DNA from: Antedon mediterranea
Lineage: Eukaryota; Animalia; Echinodermata
Reading direction: 5' to 3'
DNA: 64,000 nt
Assembly: GCF_964355755.1 (NCBI RefSeq)
Contig: NC_092676.1
Span: 19,114,871 to 19,178,870 of the forward strand
Part shown: piece by piece, positions 1 through 44,228 of the stretch
How positions within the stretch are numbered: position 1 is the first letter of the stretch
Layout: every line of letters starts with the position of its first letter
Position numbers and translations under genes: made by a program
The notes under the pieces: generated by a model
Database searches by the model: none
What the model saw: only the letters and a program-made list of their open reading frames with translations
Told to the model about the DNA's origin: nothing

Positions 1-110
1 TCTGATTTGAATACTTGATGTCTAGGAACTTGTTTTACTAATACAAATTTTGACTTTTTATTTAGTAGAATAGTTTTTATAACAAAAATTTTTTAATTTT
101 CCATAGTCAC

Positions 111-20580: not shown

Positions 20581-20713
20581 CTTTTGATATTCAAATCTTA
20601 TTGTTAATAATCAGTATAAGTATAACGTCGTTGTCAATGCAGTCCTGTTGGTTCAACACACTGATACTAGCGCTTCATTCCTGTTACTCCGACAGTCTCC
20701 TCAATTGTAAAAG
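20581..20713 (+). promoter_or_regulatory. Promoter and non-coding first exon of Cys-loop peptide gene A
   Basis: CTTTTGATATTCAAATC motif, TATA-like TATAAGTATAA, then donor AAAG|GTAAGAG at 20713. Homologous to the blocks at 23752-23865 and 36568-36699. Confidence 0.6.
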
Positions 20714-20932
20714 GTAAGAGATACGATTTTTTTATTCCAAAAACTTCTTTAAAAGTTGTAACAACTGTGCGTGTAGGAAAAGGAAAGCAAAAATTGTCAA
20801 ATATAATACAGAGACCGAAAATAAATGGAATAGAATTATAATGGCCTTACTTACACATGTATTTATAATGTAAATATAGGTTTAAGCAATCTACTGTTTG
20901 CTTCGTCATATCATAATAGGCCTATATCGTTA

Positions 20933-21119
20933 AGGCCAATTTACACAGACGAGCGGTAAGGTAAGCGTGATTGTCTCGCGTAGAATCTGTATCAAGCGCC
21001 CGTCTGCTCCGTGTTTCGTACGCGTCATAAGAAATAACATAATAGAGGAAATATATACATAGATTCTATATTTTTGTTGTCCGCTTTAGCTTTACCGCTT
21101 GTAATGTGTAAATTGGCCT
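20933..21119. mobile_element. PIF/Harbinger-like MITE (family 2)
   Basis: TTA|AGGCCAATTTACACAG ... TGTGTAAATTGGCCT|TTA. Related copies at 32045-32228 and, partially, from 28650. Confidence 0.75.
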
Positions 21120-21795
21120 TTACAAATGACTTCATACTGCTCTGACGAGATGTATGGCTAACGAATATTCGATTTCTATAGGCCCTATGTGCCTTATTTG
21201 ACGAAAAAGTTTAAAAGAGTTATCTAATTTTTGTTTTTAATTATCATTAGTACATCATGTCTGTCAATGCAGTCCAAGTTAAGAGTTCAGTACGTACGAA
21301 TACGAACTATAATCTATACTTCTTCGATATACGTAATTGTTGGTTTGATAAATTATATAAATCATTTTCCGTAAATCTATTCATATTGGTATTTCCAAGG
21401 CCGGATAACATACACTTTTCTGGGATTTACATATACAATACAATAATAAACATAAAAACCAAAATGCATAGGGGTATAGAAGGAGATTAAGCCACGTCAA
21501 GACCTGCAGTACGTTAACATTTTTCACATTTTATGATGGAAATTGTTGTCATCATGAAGGACTCTACACATTTTTCTGGCTGTTTTACTTTATCGTTGAT
21601 TTAGCTGTTTCATTCTGTATATTCATTGAGATTCAGCCACTGATACCCACAGTATTGTCGGGTTTTCCCACAGTTATTTGCCTTTTGCAAACAAGTAGTA
21701 ATATTTTTAGATATAGAAATTGCATATTATACAATTATTTGTATATCAACACTCTTTCATTTACAGTTGGCTAGGCCTAAAGAAGATTAAGTGAA

Positions 21796-23091
21796 ATGGA
21801 TGTCCGAATAACTGTTTTATGCGTACTATTAGCACTGGTTTTTGTGGGCGTACAAGCCCAACCCCCGCCAGGCTACTGTAGGTAAGTAGGCCTAACCATT
21901 TTTATTATACATTGACGGTGGCGAATCAAGGATTGTAAGGGGGTTTGGTGTGGGTTTCTTTAGTGCCTTTTGCATTTAATAAAAAATATCAAAATATTGA
22001 AGTTTAATTGAACATATTTAATGTTTGTGAGTAGAATGCTTATTTTCAACTAGCGAAAATTAGAGCTGGTTACGGTGGTTGATTCCCATTGAAAATAAAA
22101 TGTTGATCATGTAAAATTGGATTTTGACCACTGGAGTTGGTTTCCTCTAAGCTAAGCTCAATTGACGATGGTTTTGACTAGGACGCAACAACCCCACGAC
22201 GTAAGCGCACCGCAAGTAACTTGACCAATCACGACGCGCTGGATTATTTGAACTGTCGCTTCGTGATTGGTCAACTCACTTGCGTTGCGCCTACGTCGTG
22301 CGTTGCTCCTACATCGTCGTGTTACATCCAAATTGAAACCAATCTTAAGTAGACTGGTAGATTGTTGCATTGTTAAAATGGGAGATAAAAAGAAAGAGAA
22401 AAAATAGACATGTGATATGAAAACTTAACAATGGTAAAACTTAAAATATATATGATACGAAATTAACTTAACAATGGTAAAACTTAAAATATTTGATACG
22501 AAATTAACTTAACAATGGTAAAACTCTATTATATGGGAACCTACTATCTTTTCCGTTGGCAATGTTTTGACCGGGACTAAAATGGAATAGCCTTTTTCAA
22601 GGATGCTGTCTATGTGGCTAAAATTTTTTTCTCGAGAATACGAGCCGTAGTGATCTAATAATGTATATACTAATTATACAAGACGTGTTTTTTACTTCAG
22701 TTTTTTTTTTACTTTTATCAGTGGCATCACCGGCAATCGCCCACCAGAATGCACTGGTCTGATAGGTAAAAAGAGTCTATTACACGCATTACTCCAAAGG
22801 TTCGTCACAATTTTTATTTCAACTTAACCGATTAAACAACGATTATTTGGATAGATATTTTAATTTGGTTGAACTTCTTATCAAACATAATCAAAATATT
22901 TTAGGTTATTGGAAAGACAAGAGGAGGAGGAAGAGAAAGAGGAAAAAGAGGAGCGTAATGCACCGGTAAATGAAAGACATTACCATGCCCAAGACACAAG
23001 AGAATATGACGTTGAACAAGAACAGGAAATTCGTCTTTTAGATTTTCTGCTTGCCAACAATGGAAAGAGAAACTTCTATAAAAAGAAGTAA
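21796..23091 (+). CDS. Secreted prepropeptide A (116 aa): signal peptide + disulfide-looped amidated peptide QPPPGYCSGITGNRPPECTGLI(GKK) + acidic C-terminal region
   Basis: Exons 21796-21881, 22722-22799 and 22905-23091, with two phase-2 GT-AG introns: MDVRITVLCVLLALVFVGVQA-QPPPGYCSGITGNRPPECTGLI-GKK-SLLHALLQRLLERQEEEEEKEEKEE...QDTREYDVEQEQEIRLLDFLLANNGKRNFYKKK*. Two paralogs with the same exon layout lie in the window. Confidence 0.85.
22155..22345. mobile_element. Degenerate Harbinger-like palindromic MITE (same family as 19434-20232) in an intron of gene A
   Basis: GACGCAAC..GACCAATCACGA..TCGTGATTGGTCAACTCACTTGCGTTGCG internal palindrome. Confidence 0.55.
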
Positions 23092-23751
23092 TGAGATCAA
23101 ACAAAAGTATACCAAGACACTAGACAATCTGACGATAGATACTTTTATTCACAGATAGGACATTTTGATGAACTTTTTGTTGAAGAAATATCATCTTATA
23201 GTATACATTTCATTAATATATGAAATTTCTTCTTGGTGGTGGGAACGACTAAGGTAAAAGATTCGAAGTGTTACTATTTTTGTGTTTATTTGACACGGCA
23301 CAGTGCTTGAATGTATTGACAATCATCGATATATTTGTAGCTCATATCAACTCTATTTTATTTGGTCAAAAGGCCCAACAATGAGAACTTTTAACTGTAA
23401 AATCCTAATACTTATATGTTTATAATTATTATAGGCCTATATTTCCTAAATGTATCCGTTACTGTATTTTAACCATCCTGCTATTGGCGTTGGGTTTTGT
23501 AATTTAAAATTTCGAAAATAAAAATGAAAAACAATCATTTTACATTAGACAACTTTCTATTTGTTTTAACGGGGCTTCTTTAATTTAGAGGTTAGCGCAC
23601 CTCTGGCGGAGATATGGCTGAGATTTCCTATACATTTAGGTTAATGCAAAACTCATTTTAGTATTCCAAAATTGCTTTGGATGACGTAAGCAGTTTTGGT
23701 GGAAAGTTCAGAAACGACTTGTATGGGTAGGATACACACCTGTACTGAAAC

Positions 23752-23865
23752 CTTTTCATATTCAAATCTTATTGTAAATGATCAAAATATAACAGTCGTC
23801 CTATTCGACACACACTGGTTCTGTGTCATATCCCGGTTGGCGGTTGCGTTCTAAACTCCTCTCAG
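23752..23865 (+). promoter_or_regulatory. Promoter and non-coding first exon of Cys-loop peptide gene B
   Basis: CTTTTCATATTCAAATCTTATTGT..AATATAACAGTCGT ... CTCAG|GTAAGAGATA. The downstream intron also aligns with that of gene A (TGCAAATTGTCAAATATA). Confidence 0.6.
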
Positions 23866-24776
23866 GTAAGAGATAAAGACGTATTTTTTTTAAATTCAAA
23901 ATGTCTTTAAAATGTTTTCGACTAATTGTAAAGACTGCACGTATAGCAGTAAAGTGCAAATTGTCAAATATATACACAAATAAAACGTAAAGTAACGCAC
24001 CCCCTACAGGATAGTGGAATGAAAATGCATTGATAATGTAGGCATATATGCAACATTTCAAGCCACTTTCTTTTAAAGAACGCTTTGTCGTAGGCCTATA
24101 TTTTACTTCTGGTTTCGTGTATCTCATTTGTATTATATATTATATTGTATAAGTATACAGTGCCTAATGGTAATGTGAAAAGAATATTTGATTTTTATTG
24201 TAGAACTATCAACTAAAAAATGGTTTCTTAAGGCCCATGGCCTACACAACGATTGACGATAAATAGGCTAGATAAACATACATTTTTGTTGAATAAAACA
24301 AAGGAAATTAGAACAGTTTTCATTCTAGAACTATAGGATAATCGTGCATGCTGTATTTGATAAAAATAATATTTTTGAAAATCCAATCAAATGACGTCCA
24401 TCTATAAAACTAAAATCGTTGTATTGTAACTGTAGTATTGCTCTTACTAATCATGACGTCATTTGATTGAACGTGTGTAAATATTATTGTTTAAAATGTA
24501 TATTTCTTATTATAAATATAAACGTTTATATATTATAATCGCAATAATAACTTCTTTAGTTCGTTTGCTCGTAAATCGCACGGGAAAAAAAAATGGTAGA
24601 TTTAAAAAAACCGATACAAAACGTAAAAACTACAAAAAAATCATGTGACAACACACATAAATAGTATACTAATGACCAAATAATTTGAAGTTACCATTCA
24701 TTTTTTTTTTGTCTTGAAAAATATTTAAATAATCATGGACCACTGTTTCATTGTACAGTAAAGAAAATCAAGCAAA

Positions 24777-26196
24777 ATGGATTTTAGAATAATTGTTTTG
24801 TGCGTAGGCCTATTAGCTCTGGTTTTTGTTGGCGTAGAAGCTCCACCTCCGCCAGGCTGGTGTGGGTAAGTATAAAGCCTGTTTTCCTGTCGACGTTATT
24901 CGACACTATTGTCGTTGATCGATAACGACGATCGTTTGTAAACGATCAAGTTGAAATGATAATGATAGCGGGTACCTTTTCCTGTAAATCGTTAACAATT
25001 CAATGTTTACGTAGAAGATCGCCGATTATTGTTAACGATAACGTCGAATAACGTCGACAGGAAAACAGGCTTAAGATAAAAATACATCTTCAATGTATAT
25101 ATTTATATTGCTGAATAAAATACCATACTGAAGTCTAAAGCTATGTCGTATCAAACTATTTTTTGATATACAGTATATACTGTTTTCCCAAATATGGTAG
25201 TTATATTTGACGTCATCGTGTCCGTATATGTACACATCACTTTTTTGTTACATACAAGTTTGATAGTGTAGACAGACCTTAATGTTTCATTCAATTAAAA
25301 TATTAAAGATAATATTTAAGTTTAATTAAAGGTAATAATATTAAATAATGTTTATGTATGAGTTAAATGAACGCAAAATATTCGAATAACCAATACAAAA
25401 CACCCATTCATTATTTTATGTTTAAAAGGGTGTTTTTTTTTTTTTTAGAATACGAGATGTATTTTTATTAATGTATGCACCATTATCCATTATCATTTTT
25501 TCTTTTGTTAACAGCGGCATCGCCGGGCATCGCCGGCCAGGATGCACTAGTCAGTGGGGTAAAAAGAGCACATTAGACGCATTAATTGAACAGTGAGTGT
25601 AGGCATGTTTATTTCAACCTATATATTACTTAAAGATGTATTGTCCCCAAAAACCTACAGATTAATAATTAGAATTTGAGTATACTATTAATCACTTCCG
25701 TAGAAAAAGTAATGTTTTCACTTATAAAATGACAAAATAAATGGTTAAATTCAACCAAAAACCCATTTACGCGCAGCTAATTTGACTATATTTTCTTTAA
25801 ATTACATACATAAATACATTCTTTTTCAATCCTATTTTTTTTTAAATGGCATATTCAACAATAACAATAATAATCATTTTTTCAGGGGGACAGTATATCT
25901 TTAATAATGATTAACGACAATATAACTATATATAATTGGTTGGACATAAACTTATCGAAATCTAATCAAAAATATTTTTGTATAGATTAATGGCAAGAAA
26001 AGAAGTGTTGGAAGAAGACGAAAAAGAAGCAGCAGCAGCGAAGGATCGTGATGTGGTAAATGAAAGAAAGGGGTTGAATGAACCGAATTACCAAGACACC
26101 AGAGAATATGACGTTGAACAAGAAAAGGAAATTCGTCTTTTAGATTTTCTGCTTGCCAACAATAAGAAAGACCTAAATTATGAAAGTAAAGATTAA
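24777..26196 (+). CDS. Secreted prepropeptide B (125 aa): signal peptide + PPPPGWCGGIAGHRRPGCTSQW(GKK) + acidic C-terminal region
   Basis: Exons 24777-24865, 25515-25592 and 25986-26196, phase-2 introns: MDFRIIVLCVGLLALVFVGVEA-PPPPGWCGGIAGHRRPGCTSQW-GKK-STLDALIEQLMARKEVLEEDEKE...YQDTREYDVEQEKEIRLLDFLLANNKKDLNYESKD*. Confidence 0.85.
24876..25071. mobile_element. Harbinger-like hairpin MITE (196 bp) starting 10 bp into the intron that splits the gene B peptide
   Basis: TAA|AGCCTGTTTTCCTGTCGACGTTATTCGAC ... GTCGAATAACGTCGACAGGAAAACAGGCT|TAA: long perfect TIR and TAA TSD. Confidence 0.85.
25634..25900. mobile_element. TTAA-target MITE (Kolobok-like)
   Basis: TTAA|AGATGTATTGTCCCC ... GGGGGACAGTATATCT|TTAA. 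Same ends as 54591-55132; relics near 55430 and 56285-56560. Confidence 0.7.
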
Positions 26197-26406
26197 TAAA
26201 ATTAACCAAAGGTATAGGCCTTCCAATATACTAGAAAATATTACCGTATGGACACTAATTTACAGAAATATGCCTTTTTAATAAATGTTTGGAGATTTAA
26301 TTTAATATTTTACCTACCATTAAATTTCTTTTTGGTGGTGGGACCGAAGTGGTCCACTGCGCTTTTTTGATACAGTGTTTATATTGTAAACGCGCACCAT
26401 ACGTGA

Positions 26407-26572
26407 AGCTTGGTTTCTACTTGAACAACGCAACGCAAGTTTTACACGCAACGCAGGCAATTTACCCAATCCGAAGCGAAGGACTTTTTACTGTTGCTTG
26501 TGATTGATTAAATTACGCGCGTCGCGCGTATGTCCATGCGTTGCGTGCTAGAGTGGGAACCAATCAAGCTTT
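26407..26572. mobile_element. Harbinger-like palindromic MITE (family 1)
   Basis: AAGCTTGGTTTCTACT..ACGCAACGCAAG ... GCGTTGCGTGCTAGAGTGGGAACCAA. Confidence 0.6.
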
Positions 26573-27174
26573 AGTGTAATAATCCCTATTGCACGGCTCA
26601 AACGAAGCTTGCTTTACTGGGATTAGGTGCAAGTGCAGTCCCCCATAACGGCTGTAATAACAAGTGGCTGAATTTGAATCAGAAAACCCTTACCATTTAT
26701 ACGCTGCAGGTTTTAGTTCAAAGTCGGTGTTATACAAGTTACATTTGGACTTCATAGCATTTGGTATTGTTAAGCCTGCTATGATTAGTATAGTAATACA
26801 ATACTAAGCTTACCGTATTTATTATTACATTAGTAGTATTGTAACACTATGGGGTGTACATGCACTATAAGCCATAGTTGGCCTAATCATGAACTTTACA
26901 GGCCACGTCTGTAGCAAGCATGTATCTGATGTGTTAGTGGTATAGCGCTCGTGCTTTAAATCGTATTAGGCCTACAATTATTACCAACAAATAAAAAAAA
27001 AAATTTCAAATTACAAACGCATTTAAAAAGGATGGTGGTGAAATTAAATGCGACTATTGGAAGTAACTATGCAATGTTTGAAAAATTAAGATGGAAAAAT
27101 AAATAAATAGCTTTGATATTGTTTTTGTATGATTTATGAAATGCTTTACTTCAATTGCTTCCATTGGTATGTGT

Positions 27175-27283
27175 TATATCGGAGGTACATCGGATATATC
27201 GGCCGACATCGGAGTTATATCGGAGGTAGGGCCTACATCGGATATATCGGCTGACATCTGAGTTATATCGGAGTTATATCGGC
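27175..27283 (+). repeat. Short ATCGG-based minisatellite
   Basis: Repeated TATATCGGAG / ACATCGGA motifs. Confidence 0.6.
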
Positions 27284-30200
27284 GTTTAGATTTGCCTTAA
27301 GTCTGTAGTTTTTATGTTTCAGTCTTTTATTCCTTTTTCGTGGAATTTATTCAACACATAACATAATAGACTAAACTTAAGATACGTAGTCCACCAGCCG
27401 ACGTCTGGACACTACAAAATACGAGCTCACGTATAATACGTATGAAACGCTACATGTGCCAAAATATTTCTCTTTTTACTCACTGCGGTCTAGAACCTAG
27501 ACTAATCAGAGTTATAAGAGAGTTAACCGATATAACTCAGATATGTTTATGATCGGTTTAACTCCGTTCTATGATGCGTCCGTTCGTATTGACTGCAGCA
27601 CCGCCCTCCTAATACAGGAGTGCCGTTAAAATTGTGAACCATTATCATCCTGTTATTTCACACACACCTATCTCCGATTTTAGGTGAACTTATACTTTGT
27701 TGGTCAAATCATTATTTTATATTCTCGTGTCATTCAAATAAATATAGGCCAAAGTACATTTATCTATTAATGATTTCCACTTAAGTGCTGATGTCATTTA
27801 GATAAAAATAACGGACACATCTTCATAATGTATATAAAAAGATAGAATACAGGCTAACCTATATAAAGTATTGAGTTGAATCTTATTTAAATCGACTTTG
27901 TTTTGTGTTCTGATGTTTACGTAATACTAAACTAGTTTAAAGAGCAAAACAATGTTAATTGTATTTAGTTCGTTTCGTTTTTATGATGCTGTTATTTTTT
28001 ATAGGCTAGTATTTATATTTTTTGACTATCAGTTAGCTGTTTAAAATGTTGTAAAATTCCAAACAATGTGTGTTTTAAATGCGCCATTCTTCCTTTGCAA
28101 CACTATTCAGAAAGCGGCAATCCAGTGTGCTACCCACATTGTAGTCTTAAAAAACGCACAACCCACGGATTGACCCCTATCAATTGTATTTTTATTTGAC
28201 TGGCACTCGAGTGTTACCAGTTTATTTGATAAAGGAGGGCAAAATTCTAGATAACAACCCGACCTTGTTAAACATAATAATTCACAAAGACAACAGTTTT
28301 CCAACGGATCCATGGCATAGTTAATTTCCTATGACTTGCCAGCAGATATAAAACATTCACCCACGATTATGTCCTTTAAAGCTATAGATACAGATCTCAT
28401 TTCTTTTCATAACACATTTGCATATTATATAAGTATACAATATAGGGTAGCCCTACTCCTTGCGCAAAAGTATTTTACTCCAAGACACGCATACAAAATC
28501 AGTGCAAATTTAAGTACTGAAATCTCATATCTTAATCGTATATTCAGTGCTCTATAATAGCTGAGGTGGATTTAAAAATGTTGCCTAACATAAGTTGTAC
28601 GAAAGATGATGGTACCGTTTGTAGGCCTATAATAATTGTAAACATTGTAAAGGCGAATTTACACAGACGAGCGGTAACGGTAAGCGGAAAACCACGTAGC
28701 TTGTCCCACGTAGAATCTTTCTGTCCTGAGAAACCGTTCCGTCCGCAGATGGCCGCGTTGAGTCTTTCAAATGGATGTGTCTTTATAATATTAAACAATC
28801 TATTATTTTCAGTACTACAATTATTATTCCCCAAAAGTGGAGTCTTATTGGAAAGAATATTATACTTCTAAATTTAGACCCTTATCCTCATTGCACTCAT
28901 TGTCAGGGTAGTTAATATTCTCGATGTGTAGATTTTTAAGGCCCTGTTTAGACCCATAAATAGCTTTAAATTCCGTTCTTCCTCTTTCAGATGATGTTGT
29001 TTTGATAAACAATGTTTTTGTCCTGTATTGCATCATCTAAAATAATTATTTATTTAATAACTTGACATTCCATGTTTCTATCATAAATAACTTACATAGT
29101 GAACACACATACTTATGGTTATAAAACAAATGTTCTCCCCTCTCTTGTTGCCAAAAATACCGCGAAACGCGTAGAATGTGGGCGGAAATTTGATTTGAAG
29201 TACTCGCATACATCCCTCTTATTTAAACAAACGATAACATTCAAGTGAGTGAGAGGGTTATGCCTACGTAATCGGTTAAAAATGATGTGATGACTTTGAA
29301 ACCCACTAGGTTATCGATGAATTGCGTTGAATTTAGGCCTCGACGGATAGGCGTACGTGATTGAAATATAGGAGAGATGAAGAGGAAGGGGCAGGTTTAA
29401 AAGAACAAATAAGAATATTCCACTCAATTCTGCAGCTGACTGACTGTTGCAAGTCATTGAGATACGTGTCTAGGTGCATTAAATACGTTAAGTTTTGTAC
29501 TTAATGGCAGCTCTGCAGAATTGGGTGGATATTCTTCTGTGATACTTTTTATTTATGAACAACGAATATCTATCAGTATACATTTCAAAAATAAACAAAT
29601 GTATTTTAATTCATCTAGAAATATTTACGTGGGCGTTGATGTACCAACTACTAAATGGGTTATAACAACAAAAACTTGTTAGTTTTTAAGTTCAAGGTAC
29701 TCATCCATCAAAGCTTATTATTATTTTGACATGTAGCAAAATAAAAGCTTCTCGTTATTTTTTAAAATGGTATGTTTAACTGATTTTAAGTCCGTTTCCG
29801 TGAAGTTAGTCTGTATATATTCCGGTATGTGGAGGTGTAATGTATAACAAAGGACTTAAGGTTGAGTTCAGCATTTTATTTTGACAATGTTTATGCTCTA
29901 GGTCGGAAGTGACGGAAAGCGACTAACTTATACATAGACCTGTAAATAACTATATGATTATTAAACGATAATATTCTTTATTTTAATCAGACATCCCATT
30001 GATGTTCAATGAATGCTTTTCATTGGTCAAAAGTTTTTGATACGCAGCACGTGATTAATACGGAAATCTAGATAAATACTTCTTTATAAACATTGCGTCA
30101 TTTAATCTAAAAATAGATTATACTACCTTGAAATCAATTAAGGAATGTTTGTATTTTGTTAATTGATGACGTCACGCATTTAAATTTAATCCATGCAGAA

Positions 30201-30287
30201 ACACAGTGCAACGAGTGAACTTGTAGGATCATAATGCCGAATTATTTTAGGTTCGTTCGTTATTAAAGATCCTATCATACCCTCTAA

Positions 30288-30543: not shown

Positions 30544-32044
30544 TAATGCATGTTCTAAAAGTGTCAATCTCCGCGTGATGGACGATTAAAATTACATGAA
30601 ATGGTGGTGGGGGGGGGGGGGGGCGTATTTCTAAAAGGTAGTGAAATTGAATGACTAAAGGAAGTTACCCGTCGTAAACTATTAATTAAAATGTATTAAA
30701 GTAGAAACATAAAGTATTATATATCGTGTCATACCACTGCATTACTATTACTATACGTAAATAGAAGTGTAGACAGTGCAGTATTATATATACTGTACAT
30801 TATTTCGGTATATGTGACTTTCCTCGTATAGTATCGCGGGATACAATGTAGACGCTTGTATACAAGCAAAGGCGCACCATATACACACAACAGGATGCTA
30901 AGAAATGTGTTTATTAGTACTAATATAACACCTTAGAAAACAGACATAAAGGGAAAAGTAATACACGAATAAGTCTATTGGACACATCTTTTCAGTAAAA
31001 TCAGACGCATGGCTAACCGCAACTTGCAGCAAATAACTCTGTAATTAAATTTTACCTTTTGTGTGTTACCCTTTGTGTTATTTCTATTTGCGACACAGGC
31101 TGCCCGAGGTCTAGATAAATAGTTTTTGAGAGTGCTTGAATGGTACAGAAGGTAAGCCACAATTACAGGATTATAGTATAGTAAGTATGTCGATATTTAA
31201 CTTTTTAGTTCTTTTTTTTTCTCATAAAGTTATGAATATGGTAGGTAGTAACACATGACTTAACATTTAGAAATACATAAACCAGACCTGGATTACCGGT
31301 GTAGTTAGACTTTCCGTCTAATAATTTACTGTACTTTTTTAAAGGCGCGATTAAGTAAGAGTGGTTAGTTCCACCAAAGCGGTGTAGGAAATATTGATTT
31401 GATTTTAAGGGCGTACAATTAACAGATCTTTTAAGGTGTTAGACTCTTTAGATATAATCACCGCATATCTACATAAGTAACCGCAATTACAGGACTCTGA
31501 TAGGACATTCATTATTTAACTTATTTTTTATATTGTATAAGTTTTGAATAAGTCAATTTATGTTTAGCATGATATAATCATAATAATAATAGTCTATTGA
31601 TGATCTCGGGATTAAAGTTAGGCTCTCTGCCACATCAAATGGATTTTGTGTACTTTTCTAAGGTTCAACTGAGAAGTGTTAGTTCTGCCCAGTGGCACAA
31701 TATTTGATTTTAATGACGTATAAATCGCAAATTGTCTGTAGGCCTATTACTGCTAAATAGCGGGAAGACGGTGAATAACAAGTACCAAACATGGAATACC
31801 GGAAATCAGGAAATGCTAGAAGTGAAATCTTTGTTTACCTATACCTAGTTTGATTATTTTTTGTTGTTGAAATGAAACTGATAAAAACAACGATAAGTTG
31901 TTAAGTTTCTCAAGTACGTAGAAACTCTTTCATCAAAGTTTAAACATCTTTGTTAGCTATTATTATGCAGTGTTAATTTATAAGCTTTATTCCCTAACCT
32001 GAGATGATACGACATTTTTTCAGAAAGAATAAGAAAGCGTATTA

Positions 32045-33747: not shown

Positions 33748-35579
33748 GAGATAGCTTTGATGTTCATTTTTCCATTTATAATTTCAATGCTCTGGTACTA
33801 TAATATAGGCCTAACAAAGTTTTAATTTTGAAAAAAAAAACAGAAGTTATAAAGAAGCTAAAGTTTAAAAAAAAAGACCCCTTCAGTGAAATGTGTGTTC
33901 AACATTCAAACAATTCCTGTTTTAAATTGTTTGATTCCAAACGCAAATAAACACTTTTATTTTTAGCTCAAATTCAAAAGAAGTTTTAATTTGGAATTTG
34001 AAATGTTGTACTATTTTGTATGTTTTATAGTATTTTAAATATGTTTATACGTATTTTAGCCTAAAGGTATTTTAATATCTTTTGAAAAAATTAAAGTGTC
34101 TTAATAATAACTTATATCTATGTCTATATTGAATTGCTATATTCCACAGTATTCATGGATGATTGATTTTATTAATTTCGATCGTCACTACTTTGCCCAT
34201 CTTGAAAATGTTATTACAATTTTAAAAATATTGAAATGAATCTATTATTAAATTACAGAAACCAAATTAGGCAAGCGTGTTTTCCCGGAAACTACGTCAT
34301 GCATTTTTTATCACAACGCATTCCAAGACTTACAAAAAAAATGTCCGGAACAAAATTCCATATATTGTACAGTCCATTTAAATTTAAAATCTCTAAGCTA
34401 AACTTTAAATGCGGTATTATTGCAACATGCCTAGCCTAGTTCGTGTTATTGTTTGCTTCTTTCGTGGGAGTTCTACAACCCGCCTCCAATTTTCTTCATA
34501 TAATTTTAAAGCATATGTCAAAACAAGATTTAGTTATTTTTTAGGATTTTTTTTATCCATTATTAAAGACGAAAATTGTTTGCTAGTACGTAAAAAACAA
34601 AATCAATGATAGTTCCATGAAAAGTTACATAGAAGCCTACGATTTGTAAAATGAAAGTAACTTAAAGGCCAGGTGCGGGCAAACAATTTCTATTGATCAT
34701 ACATTCCAATAATTATCGATCTATAGTTTCCCCTATGTTTCATAATGTTTGGGATTTTATTTGTGTTACTTGAGCTTTTTAAAAATAAGCACTTTCTTAT
34801 CAGTGGGGGGATAGTTCAAATTACACAGTAAAATCTCTATTCTTTTGTACACAAATTTTGTAAAAAGAGAGGCATTTTAAAAAGCTATGAAAAATAAACG
34901 GTGTGGTAAAAAATGTTATCAGATGACTAAATATAGGTAATATAACTTGAATTTTACATTACTGGTATTTTTATTCAACTTCAGATTTTTATTTTCATGC
35001 TATAGCAGAAATTATCCACCGTATATCCACCATCTTTTTTCACCTTCTAGAAAGTCACTAGACATGTTATTACATTAGGTTAAACTACCTAACTACTGAA
35101 AAAAAGTCTTCCTGGTTTTTATAGCAGAATTTTTCCAAATTTTGTATTTGACCATATTAAGGGAAATTCATGCTTTTTTCGTTTTGATTTCTGTTACAAA
35201 TATTTGATTTATGTACAATTAACCAGATATTATATTTAAAATTCATGCCTGTATCTGAGCTTTAAAGTTGATCCATATTTTCAGAAAAACCAACAAATTC
35301 AATTTCATTGAAAAAATTGCGATCTAAAGTTTTGAGAATTTCAGTTACGGTTTTTATTGGAAAAATAAGCAAGTAGATAAATATACTATATGTGGGTGTA
35401 TCACATTATCTTCCATGGTTTGGATGTAAATCTCGATTTATATAATTAATAATATTTTATTGGCATAATATGCATATTAAACAATAGAATAGATTTGAAA
35501 TTGACTTGCTATGTTCTGTTAATACAAATATGTTTGGTACACTACCTCCTATTATAATTTCAATTTAAGATTAGCCTGC

Positions 35580-35830
35580 ATTTATTATTTATTCATTTAT
35601 TTAACATCTTTATTACACAATAAGGTAAAATAAAAAACTGTTTTGCATTGTGTTCCTTTCTTAAAAAATACAAAATAAATCGGGCGAAAAAAAAATTATA
35701 TTTTATTTTAAAAATGAGATAGATATCTAGCTTTGAATGAAGCATTTTTTTGGAGAATATTTAATTTCAGTTTGTAAGCTATTCCATACGGTATTTTAGC
35801 GCCTGCAATCAACTCAATTTTGTTTTATAA
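35580..35830 (-). mobile_element. Decayed 3' end of a CR1/L2-like LINE
   Basis: The minus strand reads GAK..WNSLQTEIKYSPKNASFKA-like (with frameshifts), followed by an AATAA-rich tail. A similar LPADIKHSPTIMSFKA relic lies on + at ~28336. Confidence 0.4.
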
Positions 35831-36567
35831 TATCGTTGGCGCAAGGCCGTGAACACATTTAGACAAGCTAGGGATAGATTTCTAGAATTGGCAGCAGGAC
35901 GGTCCAACAACACCCTTTCCCCAAGAGGTACTGTCTGAATCTTAAAAAGATTGTTGACTTATTCAATGGTTTCAAGACCTACTGGTCTTAATTATGCCAA
36001 CCATTTGTGAAACCCGCCAGATTCACAAACTTAATAATAACTGAAATACTAAAATAATATGAGAGCTATTGACCAACAACATAGTACGCATGGTCGTCGT
36101 CTGGGGGCCTAAAATCAAGAAGAATTCGAGTCAAGAGGCATACAAATGTCTACAATAAATTAATATGACGTAACTAGGTCTAGAATTCTGGGTGGGGGTT
36201 TGTCTTTTGTCGAGATCAAAGACCACCTTCACACATAAAAGTATTGTTCAGTGGTTTATACATATTTATTATAAATAATTTTGTTATTGGTGGTAATTGG
36301 GAACTATATAACGGTCGGTTACGCGCTTTATGTCATAATTATTAAATTGGATTTGAAAAATGTATTGAAATTTAAGGTAATTTATAGGCTATTGCCACAT
36401 TTAAATTTTGTTTGGAGTGTATGCCGGGGGCGAGCGGTACTAAATGGCCCGTCACAATATTTGAACATTGATAGTCTTTACCACACAATGTCCCGTATAC
36501 ATTCCATTTCTCAACCCAAAAACTTATCACAAACACCCACGCTATATCTACACTTAAACAAGCACGT

Positions 36568-36699
36568 CTTTTGATATTCAAATCATTTTGTTCGTGATCA
36601 AATTTATATACGTCAATTTGTTTGACCCGTGTACCTATTGGTATTCTGATTTCTCTGTGGACGTGTAACACTTTTTATAGTCTCTCTTTAATCCGAAAG
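36568..36699 (+). promoter_or_regulatory. Promoter and non-coding first exon of Cys-loop peptide gene C (first intron ~6.5 kb)
   Basis: Same CTTTTGATATTCAAATC 17-mer as gene A, TATA-like TTTATATA, then GAAAG|GTAAGA donor at 36699 at a comparable spacing. Confidence 0.55.
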
Positions 36700-36949
36700 G
36701 TAAGAATTCTAAAAAAAATTCTCGTTTTTTTATCCACCGATAAAATCTTAAGTGGAGATTCAGTGTAGTTGCAAAGACACGCTTAATAAATGGTTACAAA
36801 TTTGTCACCGTTTTTATTCTTAAAAGATTAAAATACTTATTATATAAAACGGTTATTAGACCTATGTATTGTTGTATTAAGTTGCTGTACAATTTGTGTA
36901 AATGATAAAGCTTCTCTTTGACATTACATAGCTTAGTTTGAGAGTGGTT

Positions 36950-37700
36950 TAATTAATTTAGTTACCTTAGTTAACTTAGTTTGTTAATTTAGTTACCTAT
37001 TTAACTTAGTTTGACTTTAGTTTAGTTAATTTAGTTACCTATTTAACTTAGTTTGACTTTAGTTTAGTTAATTTAGTTAACTTAGTTCGACATTAGTTTA
37101 GTTAATTTAGTTATCTTAGTTAACTTATAGTTTGAGATTGGCTTACATAAAGAGGAAAGTACTCTATTTGAAATAACATAAATAAGTAAAAACAATATCT
37201 TAATAGGTCTAATTGATATAAGTGCCGCTGTCAGAACATATTATTTTGTAAATGTTAAACTGTTCATTGCCCTTTTTAAATTAGTTTGCCTTTAGGTTTT
37301 AGTTAATGTAGTTAGTTACCTTAGTTAACTTAGTTTGCCTTTAGGTTATAGTTAATGTTCCCTCCTGTAAGTGGTGAACCATGAGCTCACTGTTGGTTGG
37401 GAAATGAATAAATAAAATAAAATAAATAAAAATGTAGTTAGTTGCCTTAGTTAACTTAGTTTGCCTTTAGGTTATAGTTAATGTAGTTAGTTACCTTAGT
37501 TAACTTAGTTTGCCTTTAGGTTATAGTTAATGTAGTTAGTTACCTTAGTTAACTTAGTTTGCCTTTAGGTTATAGTTAATTTAGTTAGTTACCTTAGTTA
37601 ACTTAGTTTGCCTTTAGGTTATAGTTAATGTAGTTAGTTACCTTAGTTAACTTAGTTTGCCTTTAGGTTATAGTTAATGTAGTTAGTTACCTTAGTTAAC
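36950..37700 (+). repeat. TTAG(T)-rich minisatellites: 42-bp unit (36950-37130) and 49-bp unit (37280-37700)
   Basis: The 49-mer AGTTAGTTACCTTAGTTAACTTAGTTTGCCTTTAGGTTATAGTTAATGT is repeated about 7 times and interrupted at ~37360-37432 by a short insert ending in (AATAA)n. Confidence 0.85.
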
Positions 37701-38787
37701 TCAATTTTCGTATGAATAATGTTACGGCGCTCTACATAGGATTGCTAAAATAATATGTCTAGTGTTGGACATACATACTGTATATTGTTTTATAGACATA
37801 CATTTAGTAATGGCCTTGATAAATCCTGTGCTTATGTTAATTATTTTCAATATGAACAATAAAAAAGTATCATTTTGATGTTAATAATTGTTGTAAAAGT
37901 GCCGGTGATTATCATTATTATTTTTCTTAATGTAAATGTTAAACTGTTAACTTTGCACATTGCGTTATGTTGCCTCGTTCGCTTTCTCGTATTCCAAGCA
38001 TATTATTTCGGTACCAGTATTAAAAAATTAGTGTATTATCAAAATGTATATTAGCTATGTTACGATGTACTTCCAGAAAGTGCAAAGTACATGGTATAAT
38101 GATTGATCTATGCAAACAGAAATGTAAGCCTACTGTGTACATTTTGACAATGTATACATCTATATCAACTATTTCAAACAGTTCATTACTTTGGAGTGTA
38201 TTTTGATGCATTGGTTCATCTAAGTTTTATTCATAACAAAATATACCAATTAATGTTTTTTAGGCCTAAGGATTTTTAGAAATTTGGCTTTTACAATTGA
38301 GATGTTTTTCTTATTATACATTTTTTTTTCGTTTCTGTTTACCTTTTATATAATAAGATTAATATGTTTGTCAAGATTTCATTGCTTTAGCAGGCCAAGA
38401 AATCATGTAAATCAAGAAACTCATATCATGTTTCAATCCGTAAATACATTGAAATAGAATAATTTTTAAAATAAATATACCTTTGGGGGACTTGGTTACT
38501 GTCCGTATTGTTATATAAGTTTGTACTAAAAGGCTCCAAACCAATGTAAATAATGCGATGTAAAGAAATTTCTAAATTAAGAAAAGTTACCGGAGTAACT
38601 TCAAGTAAAGTAACAGAACACATTGGAAATTTGACGTTATGATCGAATTCCCAATTCTGTCTCTTAATTTGGAGTTATAACCATTTTTGTTCGTCTGAAA
38701 TTATTTAGTCAGCTTCTGGTAAAATGTGTTTGTAGAGAAAGAAACATACCAGGATGAATCAGCTTATTTCCATGGGCTCATATTAAA

Positions 38788-38987
38788 CAAGGCAATCTAA
38801 CAACAAGACGATGAGCTCCAAAGATCAAAGGGTTTATCTGTGGCTGCAACACGATCAGTTCCACGCCCCTTAACAGACAAAAATATGTACAAATGATCTT
38901 GCTATTTGTCGCAGACAGATATAATATCAAAGGACTGTTCCTATCTTGGCAAGGCGAGCTTATCACCCTGTTGTTAAATTGCCTTGT
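38788..38987. mobile_element. MITE with AAGGCAATCTAACAACA termini; second copy in opposite orientation at ~56993-57175
   Basis: AAGGCAATCTAACAACA ... TGTTGTTAAATTGCCTT. The internal TTATCTGTGGCTGC segment appears reverse-complemented in the 57-kb copy. Confidence 0.6.
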
Positions 38988-39161
38988 GTATTAAACAAGC
39001 AATTGAAGTTACCTAAAATACATACATTAAAACATGTTTTATATTTCTCTCTATACTTATGATTAACGGTGTGTTTGGAGCAATACTTTCCTTTTGATAG
39101 GTGTTAAACGAACGTCAGTATGGTATTTAGGACGATAACATTCACCACAATATAAATACCG

Positions 39162-39912
39162 TTTTCAGTCGCGTGGAAGCGACTCTATAGTTCACTATGT
39201 CGGTCGGTCGGTCGGTCGGTCGGTCTGTCGGTCTGTCGGTCTGTCGGTCTGTCGGTCTGTCGGTCTGTCTGTCGGTCCGGTATCACTATGCGTTTTTTCG
39301 CTTTCTGACCTTATCTGGATATCAGTTTAATCTAGCTAAGTCAATTTTTCAAAGTATATTCCTTATGGCCAGGAATCGATGTGGTTATGTTTTCACGGTG
39401 CGTAATAAAAAATTACGTGGTCTACGCACGATTTAACGAAATCACGTTTGTAATCATATCTTCACAACCATGAATCACAATTAAATAAAATTTGGTACTC
39501 ATAAATTTCAGGGCATAAATCATCATATGGCAATACAATTACGTGCGTAGCGCATGTAACGCATGCGTACGCGCGCTTAAAATGTTCAAAATTTATTTTC
39601 GATTAAATAAGAGTACGTTTCAGGCAATTTTAAGCGTTTACAAAATTGCCATGAGTGCGCAGATTTTGCTTAATGTTATTGCGCACTCTTTTTGCCCGAT
39701 TTCTGTTTTCTTGACTTACTTTTCAACTCGAAATTACGTTATACGAGCACGTCAAAAGTGACAGGCTACGCACGTGTAAATTAAAAAAATATAACTGTTT
39801 TTAAACATTTCAACATTTTTAAACATGTTCAGTAATTTCGGTCAGTTGGTAGGTTGGTCGGTCGGTCGGTAAACACTAAGCACGCGACTGCAGCCATCTA
39901 TATGGCCTTGTT
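39162..39912 (+). mobile_element. Longer HINE / Helentron-associated element (same family as 33609)
   Basis: TTTTCAGTCGCGTGGAAGCGACTCTATAGTTCACTATGTCGG(TCGG/TCTG)n ... GCACGCGACTGCAGCCATCTATATGGCCTTGTT. Confidence 0.7.
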
Positions 39913-40298
39913 ATAAATTGACTCAGTTCTAAATCTTATCAATCTGCAGTAAAAATAAATATGTTCCTATTGTATATGTGATACAATGCGCTATAAAATA
40001 AGCAGAATAACATTCAATGGAGAAACGGTTGTCAATTCACATTACAATTCGGCATAGTCATGAAAAGTCAATGGTCATGGTAGAAACAACAATAAGTGTT
40101 GGGTCTTGTTGGGGCATTCCTTTCCCTTTGTTAGAAGCAGAACTGCAGTTAGTACTGTTGTGTATTTCCTTCCAGAATGTTTGAATTGATCACGAAATAG
40201 TATGTGTACAACTACTACTTACTACAACAACTACCACAAGTAAAATGTTGTTACTGTGTTGTTGTTGTTATTTTTTGTTGTTTAAAAGGTGAAAACAG

Positions 40299-40403
40299 TT
40301 TTAGTCGCGTGTACGTGTAACAGCAGCTCACTATGTCGGTCGGTTGGTCGGTCCGTAAACACTAACTTGAGCACGCGACTGCAGTCATGTATATGGCCTT
40401 GTT
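40299..40403 (+). mobile_element. Short HINE copy
   Basis: TTTTAGTCGCGTG..TCACTATGTCGGTCGG..GCACGCGACTGCAGTCATGTATATGGCCTTGTTT. Confidence 0.65.
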
Positions 40404-43182
40404 TGGGTTAGGCCACCACCTAACAGAGCTAAGAAATGTATTTGGCTCACACATCCTATGTTATGAGTTTACTGTGTACATACTTTCTCAATCACGCATT
40501 CGCTAAATAAACAATCAAAAGGGCCAGTCATATTCATTAGCCTACTGATGCCTTCCACGAAAATACAAAATTATTCTGTCTTCGGCTTTCTAAACCTACA
40601 TTTTAACAATTTCTGTAGGTCTAATTTATGAATTTGTAAATTATATTTCATTGTATAGGCCTATTTATGTTTATGTCCTTGCCTTCCAGTAACTATACTT
40701 CTATATTCGACAATATATTTCTATTAATTTTTTTTTGCTTGCGTGCTAACTTGAAACAAATTGTTTTAAATGTTTCGGTCCAGCTAGTCTAGATGCCAGG
40801 ACTCTCTCGATTACCTACAAACAAGAGAGTGTTGGACACTCGTAATTCCTTCAAGACGTGCATACGGGGACGTTAGTTTAGGATAGTATAATTTTAATCC
40901 AGACCTTTTTATTTGAATTGCCCCGTGTGGGATGATTAACGATTTTTTTTTAATTGAATTGTATTAAATTGTATAAGAAAAGACTTATTATTTCGCTTTT
41001 TATTCCATTTTTCACATTTTTTTTTAGTTATTTCAAGACATAAATTCTTGTTGAATTGAAAAAGCTATACTGGACGATAAACAAACCTTCGTGATTTTAA
41101 TTATCTTCTATAAACATATAGGCTTGTTTGTATTATGTTTGTTATTATTTCAAATACCTTGATTTGTAAGAAAATGTATTGTAGGATCAGAAATCAAAAA
41201 TTATTAATTTCACCTATTTAAAACATAGTATACGATCAGTCAGGTGTAGGCTAAATCGTGTTACAATAATTATAAAGGTGTGGAATGCAGGTAAATACAC
41301 GTATTATTAAAAACATGTATACAATATAAAGAATTCTGCTAATAAAACTAAATCATATGAATTTAAGTTGTGAATTGTTGAATCATCTAAAGAAAATTAT
41401 ATGACAACGCAGGCGCACCCACGATTATTTTTTAAATCGGCTTAGTATGGCATTTTTACGACTTTAGGAGTTCTGATAATGGAGAATTGTGAGTATACTA
41501 AAATCAGTGTGTATACAATAGACCTACCACAAAGACAGGATAATATTCTTAATATTCTTAAACATCATTATCCTTACCCCCTCACAAAACGTCGCAAAAT
41601 AAACATTCATTTAGTCATAATTATTATCCATAAGGTGTGACGTAAGAATTAACTACAATTCGCTAATGCAAACAATTTTTGTCAAGCCATCTGCGTAGTC
41701 GATGTATGGGGTTCGAATCGATCCCATAACAAACTACTTTTTACTTTATAGTGAGACAGATTATTTAGAGGGCTAGGTTAAGTTATTAGGGAGTAGTTCG
41801 GCTATCTTTCACATAAGGAGTCCCCAACGTATGTACGAAAACAAATCTCCCCCGGTCCACACTCTTTTTATGATGTGGTTGCAATAAGGTCAGGACAAAG
41901 TCTACGTAGTTTTTATTCGCTATTTCCCAAACGTATTTCAAAGTTAACTCAAAATTTAACTTCAAAATTAACTTAAGAGTCGATTTGGACAAATAAAGAA
42001 ACGGGAATTAGTGTAGAGAGCCTATAGGGTCATTAGGTTCGCCATTTCTATTAGAGTAGAACCGACGGTAAAGAAACAGAAACATATGTGTGTAGGCCCG
42101 GTAACTCTGATTTTAATCCATAGCACGGGTTGAATTCCTTTACAGCACGATCTTTAACAGAACCGTACATTGTAGTACTGTAGTATGAATATCGGCAGAG
42201 ATACCACGCGTTACCATTGGCCGACCATGCACGTCGGGAGTAAACTTTCTTAATCCCGCCATTCTCTGTTGGATTTCATAACACAATACAGGCGTTGAAC
42301 GAGATAACTTAATTTGAAAGCATGCCAGACACGCTTTGTAAAATTATTTCACATTGTGTGTTAATGGGTGTCATCAAAGCTTATGATAATAACTTGAATA
42401 TAAATCTGTTTTATTTTGGCGCCAACAAAAGACAATCGCTTCAAAGTACAATTATCTGAAGCGATCATCTGAATGATCGCTGTCATAAAGGCATATTAGT
42501 GTTGAATAGCTTTGCATTTATACTTGCTAATCCATAATAAAAATGTGTGGTTTAATTTATAAATACTAAATTTTGTTTTATATGAAAGTAAAACTCATTC
42601 AATTTAACACAGGCCTACATCCAATTGTCATACAGTTCAAACGTAAACATTTCACCTTTAAGATTCAAGATTCAATTTTATTTTGCCAATTAAAATGGAA
42701 ATAATATGCCCAATGTAACGGTATTTTTTAAATATTTTGTACGTTCCTATTATAACCAAGTTTTACATGTGGAATAAAGTGTACAAAATTGGGACTGGAT
42801 AACCACGAGTTCATGCAGGGTCTTCATTAAGATTGTGTAAGATTCTTCATAAACTTTTTTGTGGTTAACCACCATAAACTTGATCAAATAAATGTTAGGG
42901 TGCGTTCAGGTGTAGTTAACTACTTGACAATGTTATTTCATGGGCACAATTAGTAACCAACTTACCTGAGTAAATAAAGTCTGAACGAGCCCTGAGATGC
43001 ACGCTACAACCGCCATGATTAATTTAATGTTAATTATATTTTGGTTAAAATCCAAAAGTTTTACATTTTTTTGCAGAAAATGTAAGCCTATGTCGGCCTT
43101 CTTGTTTTTTACTACCGTACTTTCGTATGCAGTTTATTGTCAATTAATTGTCTTTGTTTTTTAAAATAGAAATTGACACAAA

Positions 43183-44228
43183 ATGGATCTTCGAATTACT
43201 GTTTTATTCGTGTTGGCACTGATGTTTGTAGGTACAGAAGCTCCAGCTCCACCAGGTTGCAAAAAGTAAGTTAATTAACATCTTCTACATTGATGGTGTG
43301 ATACTACGAAAACAATTTATCGGGGATACAGGCAACAGACAGACACCTGATTATCATAGGCAAATCCGTAATACAGCTTCTCATGTGCCTGTTAGGTTAA
43401 GGATGATACGGGCATCACATGAGAAGCACATGAGATGCTGTATCACTGATTTGTACTATGATATTGGACACATTTATACAGTACCGATATTTATATACCG
43501 TTTTACATTCACAGCGTCATTGCTTAGTGTCGAGTTTCGACTTTTGAATCTAAAGTTATATACAATTCTATGTGTTTTAATTGAAATAACCACCCTAGGC
43601 TCTAAAGATTTACAATACTGTTTTCTCGTTGTTTTCAGTGCAGGCGTTTCCGGACAACGTCCACCGGGTTGCGGTGGTCAGATTGGCAAAAAAGATAAAC
43701 TACTAAACACATTACTCGAACGGTGGGTAGCCAAACATATTCCTGTAATACTTATCACTAGAAGCTGTTTTCAATAGATTACAACACCACTGATATTCAA
43801 ATCACTTTAAAACAGGAAAATGATTGTAGAATCATGATATTTTTCAGCTCTGTATCTTTGTAACATATTTATATAACAAATACACGAAGTTCAAGTAAGT
43901 TAAGTGAAGCTGTTGATCATTGTAATAAATGTATGTATTAACTTTCGCAACGTACGTTTGTACTAGTAAAATACATTTCGAAATGATTTCATGATAATGT
44001 TTATTTTGTAGATTATTGGTAAGAGAACTCGAAGCAGAAGTAGCCGAGGAAGAGCAAGCCCTTAAAAGGAAGGCAATGGATAACCCACAAGCCCCAGAAG
44101 CGAGAGAGCTTGACAATGAACAAGCCCAAGAATTGAGGGACTTAGATGCTGATGAAAAACAACAAGAAGAAACTCGTCTTTTGAATTTACTGCTTGGTTT
44201 AAATGGTGAAAGAGATATCAAAAAATAA
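43183..44228 (+). CDS. Secreted prepropeptide C (127 aa): signal peptide + PAPPGCKNAGVSGQRPPGCGGQI(GKK) + acidic C-terminal region
   Basis: Exons 43183-43265, 43639-43722 and 44012-44228, phase-2 introns: MDLRITVLFVLALMFVGTEA-PAPPGCKNAGVSGQRPPGCGGQI-GKK-DKLLNTLLERLLVRELEAEVAEEEQ...EETRLLNLLLGLNGERDIKK*. Confidence 0.85.

Follow-up and report, generated by a model that had tools for sequence, protein, structure and literature searches.

Tandem PCNP3 precursor genes of the crinoid Antedon mediterranea and a possible link to elevenin

PCNP3a and PCNP3b of Antedon mediterranea were catalogued by Aleotti et al. (2022; PMC9793003) as orphan precursors with no assigned function. PCNP3 is also present in Florometra serratissima and Anneissia japonica, for each of which one gene is listed, and those authors found no relatives in other echinoderms or in other phyla. 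Apart from this single relevant paper, no publication naming PCNP3 or "predicted crinoid neuropeptide" was found. The elevenin neuropeptide system is bilaterian. Its peptide has been reported only in protostomes, and receptors of elevenin type have been reported in echinoderms, hemichordates, and amphioxus; in Saccoglossus and Branchiostoma such receptors are known but no precursor has been predicted. In starfish, ten further receptors of the group that comprises the elevenin, CCHamide, bombesin, and endothelin types (ArBNR2-11) lie outside the clade with a known ligand. The legend to a supplementary figure of Veenstra (2014) gives, as an invariant mark of elevenin genes, an intron that begins 2 nt past the codon for the first Cys. 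Our literature searches returned no deuterostome elevenin peptide. No proposal of an echinoderm elevenin peptide was present among the titles listed for elevenin, echinoderm, and receptor, with coverage confined to journals outside subscription, and elevenin is not mentioned among the crinoid papers from 2022 onward that were listed.

The stretch of A. mediterranea DNA analyzed here (the window) comprises 64,000 nucleotides of contig NC_092676.1 and contains three spliced tandem paralogues, all on the forward strand (Table 1). As described in an initial annotation made from the sequence alone, they share one exon plan; all six coding introns are in phase 2 and have GT donors and AG acceptors. 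That annotation had assigned the family to positions 20581..44228, where the three genes are indeed located, but gene 3 extends past this limit to approximately 45007. Each of the three genes has one copy of a conserved 17-bp 5' element, which occurs nowhere else in the window and in none of 100 shuffles. The pattern C-x4-G-K-[KR], sought in six frames of the window, has three occurrences; in 30 base shuffles it was present 0.3 times on average and at most 2 times. A tBLASTn search with early precursor models detected no fourth copy in the window.

Table 1. Features of the three PCNP3 genes (window coordinates)
Feature	Position	Strand	Remark
Gene 1 17-bp element and non-coding first exon, up to donor	20581..20713	+	published cDNA joins exon to 21767 (by eye)
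Gene 1 conserved 17-bp 5' element	20581-20597	+	within first-exon segment
Gene 1 exon 2: ATG 21796, signal peptide, peptide N terminus, Cys1; donor 2 nt past Cys1 codon	21767..21881	+	
Gene 1 exon 3: ring, Cys2, amide-donor Gly, KK, tail start	22722..22799	+	
Gene 1 coding part of exon 4, with acidic tail, leucine-rich motif, and stop	22905..23091	+	
Gene 1 coding exons	21796-21881, 22722-22799, 22905-23091	+	116 aa
Gene 1 AATAAA	23517		
Gene 2 17-bp element and non-coding first exon, up to donor	23752..23865	+	
Gene 2 conserved 17-bp element	23752-23768	+	within first-exon segment
Gene 2 exon 2: ATG 24777, signal peptide, Cys1; donor 2 nt past Cys1 codon	24759..24865	+	
Gene 2 exon 3: ring, Cys2, Gly, KK	25515..25592	+	
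Gene 2 exon 4 coding part	25986..26196	+	whole protein = XP_071955290.1
Gene 2 coding exons	24777-24865, 25515-25592, 25986-26196	+	125 aa
Gene 3 likely non-coding first exon, GT donor at 36700	36568..36699	+	splice to 43170 predicted
Gene 3 copy of 17-bp element (third in window)	36568-36584	+	
Gene 3 first coding exon: ATG 43183; donor 5 nt past Cys1 codon	43170..43265	+	
Gene 3 ring exon	43639..43722	+	
Gene 3 last exon: tail, stop 44226-44228, 3' UTR to ~45007	44012..45007	+	protein = XP_071955515-7
Gene 3 coding exons	43183-43265, 43639-43722, 44012-44228	+	127 aa

On the basis of residue identity, genes 1 and 2 are identified as alleles of PCNP3a and PCNP3b, respectively: gene 1 agrees with published PCNP3a at 100 of 104 residues and gene 2 with PCNP3b at 111 of 112 (both counted by eye). 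The published Antedon sequences end at the leucine motif, whereas the genes in the window are complete. The initial annotation recognized no named family and held that a clear match to a described one would refute it; such a match exists, as the family had been described as PCNP3, although as an orphan (PMC9793003). Gene 3 is a PCNP3 paralogue that is missing from the published list, as far as the available part of that list extends; it is 42% identical to gene 2 (E 1e-22) and gave the best alignment, by eye, with the Florometra precursor. The models of genes 2 and 3 match their RefSeq proteins letter-for-letter, the latter being labeled uncharacterized. In Anneissia, the PCNP3 gene has coding exons of 83, 75, and 184 nt, with two phase-2 introns at places matching those of all three window genes. 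The tandem layout, the exon plan, and the family link considered below are absent from the available portions of Aleotti et al. (2022; PMC9793003) and are given here.

Spliced transcripts, which the initial annotation presupposed, were seen for genes 2 and 3 in sequencing run X1, which is RNA-like by its behavior and has no RNA annotation on record. For gene 3, this run joins 43265 to 43639 and 43722 to 44012 at GT..AG boundaries with a depth of 272, as compared with 0-7 in purely intronic bins; run X2, unlike run X1, is continuous across both introns. For gene 2, a contig of run X1 connects 23862 with 25986, and its 188 unplaced letters equal the exact sum of the intervening exons (3+107+78). 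Run X1 also has a loose end of 28 letters before 43168 that has no match within the window.

The precursor type proposed in the initial annotation (secreted, with a single disulfide and an amide signal) is correct. The gene models contain the three peptides that it listed, each followed by GKK and a tail with the leucine-rich motif, and they reproduce the rings of 10, 10, and 12 residues (genes 1, 2, and 3) with four residues after Cys2. The published Florometra and Anneissia peptides each have 11 residues between the cysteines. A Gly precedes the dibasic site in all five crinoid PCNP3 peptides, from which a C-terminal amide is predicted. The rings are rich in Gly and Pro and contain no aromatics, and the peptides of the window have only one or two basic residues. 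Signal peptides were predicted by hydropathy only (best 12-residue mean, 3.1-3.4). Signal peptidase disfavors Pro directly after the cleavage site, and the predicted N termini of peptides 2 and 3, which begin with Pro, are therefore uncertain. In the maturation that we envisage, the signal peptide would be removed from each precursor, a convertase would cleave at KK, the Gly would be converted to the amide, and the two cysteines would close a disulfide ring of 10-12 residues, the acidic, leucine-rich tail being a putative propeptide. One ringed, amidated peptide would then be released per precursor, from neurons, and its receptor would most likely be the orphan receptor of elevenin type. On balance, PCNP3 peptides are probably cyclic neuropeptides that act on a GPCR of the elevenin/CCHamide/bombesin/endothelin group.

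Genes 1 and 2 are separated by a dS of ~0.6 and either one from gene 3 by a dS of 0.9-1.1. Gene 3 would appear to have changed least and to be nearest to the single gene of Florometra, and genes 1 and 2 to be a younger pair with altered tails. The precursors are most alike in the signal peptide (identities of 18/21, 15/20, and 15/20 across the three pairs). In the mature peptide, 12 of 21-22 residues are kept in every gene pair, and when either gene 1 or gene 2 is set against gene 3, conservation is stronger in this region than in the tail. The dN/dS ratio of the mature region, a check proposed in the initial annotation, gave a divided answer: ~1.0 between genes 1 and 2 (dN 0.32, dS 0.31), from 22 codons only, and ~0.3 against gene 3 (21-22 codons), where the tail has values of ~0.45 and 0.54. 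An exocrine role, in which the locally triplicated genes would be diversifying as pheromones, toxins, or antimicrobial peptides, would account for the tandem arrangement, for a signal peptide that is the best conserved part, for the near equality of dN and dS in the mature region of genes 1 and 2, and for a polymorphism within the mature peptide of gene 1. However, that equality comes from the 22 codons, the mature region evolves more slowly than the tail relative to gene 3, and only single genes are listed for Florometra and Anneissia. Typical antimicrobial peptides are richer in basic residues than the PCNP3 peptides. This suggestion, which was also made in the initial annotation, finds little support in the retained mature residues, and we consider it quite improbable.

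No PCNP3 relative outside crinoids was found in homologue, Pfam, PDB, or ESM Atlas searches. The full gene 3 protein retrieved only itself among 42 candidates, and a full-library protein search with gene 3 returned the protein itself and one unrelated repeat protein. With the last exon of gene 3, there was no homologue among 3 candidates; with the last exon of gene 1, searched against longer proteins, only gene 2 was present among 18. Pfam gave 0 families for genes 3 and 2, the PDB gave 0 matches, and the best ESM Atlas score was 0.78, below the lead level, with TM below 0.5. Little weight can be placed on these negative results, since the searches did not recover even the Anneissia member already described: the last exon of gene 3 as query recovered neither gene 2 nor the Anneissia protein. 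Comparisons of the window genes with the sequences published for Florometra, Anneissia, np25, and elevenin were made by eye.

The feature that points to a described family is the position of the first coding intron, which in genes 1 and 2 and in Anneissia, three of the four PCNP3 genes whose structure is known, lies exactly 2 nt past the Cys1 codon. The exception to the elevenin rule is gene 3, whose donor is one codon off, an offset equal to the additional Lys codon that it carries within a run of A. The chance that one of two introns falls at one named position is 0.52-0.57% if introns are placed uniformly, which they are not, and it rises to roughly 2% because intron data from four families were compared. 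Five residues separate Cys2 from the dibasic site in all five crinoid peptides, as in the elevenin precursors examined, but this register is common to CCHamide/excitatory peptide (EP) and np25 and does not single out elevenin. Pro occurs two residues before Cys2 in four of the five, as in elevenins. The intron position may be a hint that PCNP3 is the missing deuterostome elevenin. Tentatively, and at somewhat less than even odds, we read PCNP3 as the elevenin orthologue, the first in deuterostomes; the orphan receptors of elevenin type reported from echinoderms, hemichordates, and amphioxus would have PCNP3 as their ligand. The Cys1+2 nt intron and the Pro-x-Cys register would then have been kept while the ring grew to 10-12 residues, an amide was gained, and the gene was triplicated in tandem in Antedon. 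A true elevenin would be expected to have counterparts in starfish and urchins, and our searches, as noted, found no PCNP3 relative outside crinoids.

That outcome, together with the same result in Aleotti et al. (2022; PMC9793003), is what would be expected if PCNP3 were a neuropeptide family restricted to crinoids with a receptor outside the group, the intron match with elevenin being a coincidence; the ring size, amide signal, and ring chemistry also differ from those of elevenin. We regard this as unlikely, since short peptide precursors routinely escape such searches and an intron match exact to the nucleotide, combined with a matching precursor plan, is unlikely to have arisen by chance. 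A rather unlikely alternative is that echinoderm np25, or ophiuroid CCHamide-like 1 (Arnp25, Ajnp25), is represented in crinoids by PCNP3, the ring having grown from 7 residues, its size in brittle stars and sea cucumber, to 10-12 (PMC4772807, PMC5627052, PMC6586643). The np25 precursors have the same plan, in which the peptide directly follows the signal peptide and Cys2 is followed by four residues and Gly and then KR; their peptides are also predicted to be amidated, and by eye the third residue before Cys2 is Pro and a leucine-rich motif resembling that of PCNP3 lies close to the C terminus. The term np25 has 0 matches in the sequence table of the crinoid paper and CCHamide has 0 in its text (PMC9793003), leaving the crinoid slot empty. 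Against this, PCNP3 is missing the conserved His-Pro-amide ending of np25, and in the np25 gene of the sea cucumber, coding nucleotides 37 and 343 are each followed by a phase-1 intron, neither of which lies within the peptide, whereas PCNP3 has two phase-2 introns, one of them inside the ring. For gene structure, the comparison with np25 covers the sea cucumber gene (PMC4772807, PMC5627052, PMC6586643).

Because the gene family was already catalogued, the third paralogue is a small addition, and the main value of the locus is the family link: the match in intron position between PCNP3 and elevenin genes is new here. PCNP3 provides three concrete peptides for the elevenin-type receptor and a gene-structure rule for locating counterparts. 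If the elevenin assignment is true, the ligands still missing from starfish, urchins, acorn worms, and amphioxus would be traceable by a rule combining intron and architecture. It would also follow that a single family can vary in ring size and amidation, a point relevant to the kinship of elevenin, CCHamide, bombesin, and endothelin.

Among other known systems, echinoderm bombesin-type precursors have, as in PCNP3, a first intron within the peptide and an amide signal (PMC12002301). They were rejected because their peptide intron is in phase 1 and is followed by phase-0 introns, whereas those of PCNP3 are all in phase 2; the starfish peptide is also without cysteines, of which PCNP3 peptides carry two (PMC12002301). 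Also set aside were the DREP families derived from cone snails, in which the peptides are longer or a phase-1 intron lies in the loop; the MCH, vasopressin/oxytocin, calcitonin, and orexin families, for which separate crinoid members are listed; and somatostatin. In somatostatin precursors, unlike PCNP3, the peptide sits at the C terminus.

Protostome CCHamide and EP have a single disulfide, an amide, and four residues after Cys2, as PCNP3 does, but PCNP3 peptides do not end in Gly-Gly-Asn-amide or Gly-(Gly/Ala)-His-amide as theirs do (PMC12969411), and the rings have 8 residues (EP) or 6 (termite CCHamides) rather than 10-12. The initial annotation had pointed toward this neighborhood, correctly as to direction, by means of a C-x-G-x-x-amide motif that is not conserved. 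Only two of the five crinoid peptides have this ending, and an allele of gene 1 (22756 G>A) changes its Gly to Ser (Gly41). Within the same neighborhood, the intron position makes elevenin the better lead. Elevenin (L11, SNET-1) of protostomes is likewise a single two-cysteine peptide near the signal peptide, but its conserved Asp, Phe, Arg, and Gly are mostly missing from PCNP3 (PMC10175484, PMC4237046, PMC6585902). Of the residues that matter for Aplysia elevenin receptors, the acidic residue before Cys1 (the conserved Asp) is present in one of the five crinoid peptides, the Arg after Cys2 in none, and the Gly at +2 after Cys2 in two; the ring aromatic (Phe) occurs in none. Elevenins are unamidated and have 8 residues between the cysteines in every case, whereas PCNP3 carries an amide signal and a ring of 10-12.

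A six-frame motif scan of the window located the signal-peptide exons, the ring exons and the motifs of the acidic, leucine-rich C-terminal tail in all three tandem paralogues (genes 1–3), where the initial annotation had placed them. After splicing by coordinates, the precursors are open, with lengths of 116, 125 and 127 residues and a pair of phase-2 introns per gene, and the three peptide sequences (peptides 1–3) and ring sizes of 10, 10 and 12 residues proposed earlier are reproduced exactly. The pattern C-x4-G-K-[KR] occurs 3 times, whereas 30 shuffles averaged 0.3. For genes 2 and 3 the models are identical to RefSeq proteins XP_071955290.1 and XP_071955515-7, respectively, annotated as "uncharacterized protein" of the feather star Antedon mediterranea, the latter being three accessions for one identical sequence. 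In sequencing run X1, which is not recorded as RNA and has splice joins as its RNA-like feature, both coding introns of gene 3 are joined at GT..AG (depth 272 versus 0–7 in purely intronic bins), and a single contig connects the first and last exons of gene 2 with 188 letters between them, the exact sum of the intervening exons. Run X2 is unbroken through both coding introns of gene 3. By eye, the published cDNAs span all three introns of genes 1 and 2. The tandem cluster is real and transcribed.

Features of the window and their positions
Feature	Position	Strand or orientation	Remarks
Short-chain dehydrogenase exon	61-990	-	adh_short, E 1.2e-08
Likely N-terminal hydrophobic exon of short-chain dehydrogenase	649-990		
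~196-bp satellite, 36 copies	1854-8957	one strand	
~196-bp satellite, 24 copies	8965-13728	opposite orientation	directly after first block
Exons for WAP domain, Kazal domain, thyroglobulin type-1 repeat	14295-17280	+	
Short dispersed and inverted repeats, many	19400-20220, 22170-22310, 60600-61850		high-copy MITE-like family, around genes
17-bp element	20581, 23752, 36568		
ATGs of genes 1, 2, 3	21796, 24777, 43183	+	
Two abutting X1 contigs	23030-23865		abut at 23579-23581
Arg-Arg pair in peptide 2 ring, then Pro	25515-25592		
Likeness to Florometra 5′ UTR	~31060-31152	+	13-letter common motif at 31103
Possible micro-exon	43078-43082		

The family to which these genes belong is already known, but it is an orphan. 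By-eye comparison with the supplementary sequences that accompany Aleotti et al. 2022 (PMC9793003) identifies gene 1 as the crinoid precursor PCNP3a (100/104 residues identical) and gene 2 as PCNP3b (111/112); the initial annotation had recognized no named family. The authors characterize PCNP3 only as related amidated two-cysteine peptides and list a single gene each for Florometra and Anneissia. They report nothing related in the rest of the echinoderms or in other phyla, and recommend that mass spectrometry and in situ experiments follow. The gene 3 motifs have 0 matches among the Antedon entries of the same supplements; gene 3 is a new member that by eye corresponds to the Florometra gene. 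Coding exons of 83, 75 and 184 nt in the Anneissia gene give the same two phase-2 introns.

Genes 1 and 2 are separated by a dS of 0.59, and gene 3 lies farther from both (0.92 and 1.11), which makes the first two the closer pair. Each gene pair keeps 12 of 21–22 mature residues, and mature-region dN/dS, which rests on very few codons, is ~1.0 for genes 1–2 and ~0.3 versus gene 3; at that codon number neither measure gives a clear sign of the toxin-like diversification considered initially. The Gly following the second ring cysteine (Cys2) is a polymorphic position in gene 1, with Ser in run X3 and in the published protein. The Ser allele removes the C-x-G-x-x-amide motif from which a link to CCHamide had been drawn.

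A 17-bp element is present in exactly three copies in the window and in 0 of 100 shuffles, with a GT donor downstream of each copy. The first exon of gene 3 is likely at the third copy, 6.5 kb upstream of the ATG, so that the 17-kb gap after gene 2 would partly be the first intron of gene 3. A segment resembling the Florometra PCNP3 5′ UTR by eye, with a GT donor after it, is possibly an alternative first exon. Just upstream of the first coding exon of gene 3 lies a possible micro-exon, a few bases between AG and GT, and an X1 loose end before 43168 has no match anywhere in the window. The two abutting X1 contigs (depths 116 and 98) run from the 3′ end of gene 1 to the first-exon donor of gene 2, the second beginning ~170 bp upstream of the 17-bp element of gene 2, and the gene 1 protein was not among the protein-search matches to its own last exon. 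Both observations would be compatible with transcription continuing from gene 1 into gene 2 (read-through), although contigs cannot prove a single transcript.

Upstream of the cluster, the two satellite blocks form a 12-kb imperfect palindrome (1854-13728), which may exist in the genome or result from an assembly join. The WAP-Kazal-thyroglobulin exons form the 3′ portion of a multi-domain, protease-inhibitor-like gene that stops ~3.3 kb short of gene 1; the exons upstream of these would fall within or beyond the satellite.

The hydrophobic leader (best 12-residue hydropathy 3.1–3.4) would direct the PCNP3 precursor to the secretory pathway; KK would be the site of convertase cleavage, the Gly before it would be converted to the amide and the two cysteines would close the ring. 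Signal cleavage directly before Pro is disfavoured, and the predicted cut would leave Pro first in peptides 2 and 3, so that their N termini are uncertain. The ring of peptide 2 holds an Arg-Arg pair followed by Pro; Pro in this position usually blocks convertase cleavage. According to the literature, ligands of the elevenin/CCHamide/bombesin/endothelin receptor group typically bear a disulfide, which Aplysia elevenin needs for receptor activation. Among the eleven group members that starfish possess, a ligand has been shown for ArBNR1 only, which leaves room for PCNP3-like peptides. PCNP3 is built like a ligand of this group.

Sequence searches found no relative outside Antedon; they are weak, having also missed the Anneissia member. 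Gene structure was compared next, following its use for distant neuropeptide kinship in the bombesin paper (PMC12002301). Bombesin-type genes have a phase-1 intron within the peptide and then phase-0 introns, and were rejected because these phases disagree with the phase-2 pair of PCNP3. Sea cucumber np25 (ophiuroid "CCHamide-like 1" group) looks like PCNP3 in its plan and tail when compared by eye but has phase-1 introns and an uninterrupted peptide. In the portions of the literature searched, no statement of CCHamide/EP intron positions was found. Elevenin, known from protostomes (PMC10175484, PMC4237046 and PMC6585902), has genes with an intron within the peptide, its donor 2 nt past the first Cys codon (Veenstra 2014, from the supplementary figure legend, without the species covered). 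The donor lies exactly 2 nt after the codon of the first ring cysteine (Cys1) in genes 1 and 2 and likewise in the Anneissia gene. In gene 3 it lies 5 nt after, with one additional Lys codon within an A run; since the Florometra peptide is without this Lys, an insertion in gene 3 would be the simple reading. The chance of an intron at one named position is 0.52–0.57% with uniform placement and ~2% across the four families compared.

Further comparison drew on these and other sources (PMC5627052, PMC6586643, PMC4772807, PMC12969411, PMC5818035, PMC11004728, PMC6188537, PMC13311285 and bioRxiv 10.1101/2022.08.05.502922). Among the five crinoid peptides (three from the window, Florometra and Anneissia), four have Pro two residues before Cys2 and all five have five residues from Cys2 to the dibasic site. 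Termite, locust and beetle elevenin precursors share both the Pro position and the register, but the register is also common to CCHamide/EP and np25. Elevenin-type receptors are reported in echinoderms and, without a predicted precursor, in Saccoglossus and Branchiostoma. The elevenin ring, however, is always 8 residues, unlike those of peptides 1–3, and elevenins carry no amide, whereas PCNP3 peptides are predicted to be amidated. Arg and Gly after Cys2, the elevenin residues most important for the Aplysia receptors, are found in 0/5 and 2/5 crinoid peptides, respectively, and no PCNP3 counterpart is known from other echinoderms in these sources. Because of the ring size, amide, residue, register and missing-counterpart objections, PCNP3 is not assigned to elevenin. 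What is new is one unlisted PCNP3 member and a testable link to elevenin, orthology with which is the leading hypothesis, one that we regard as plausible but somewhat short of probable.
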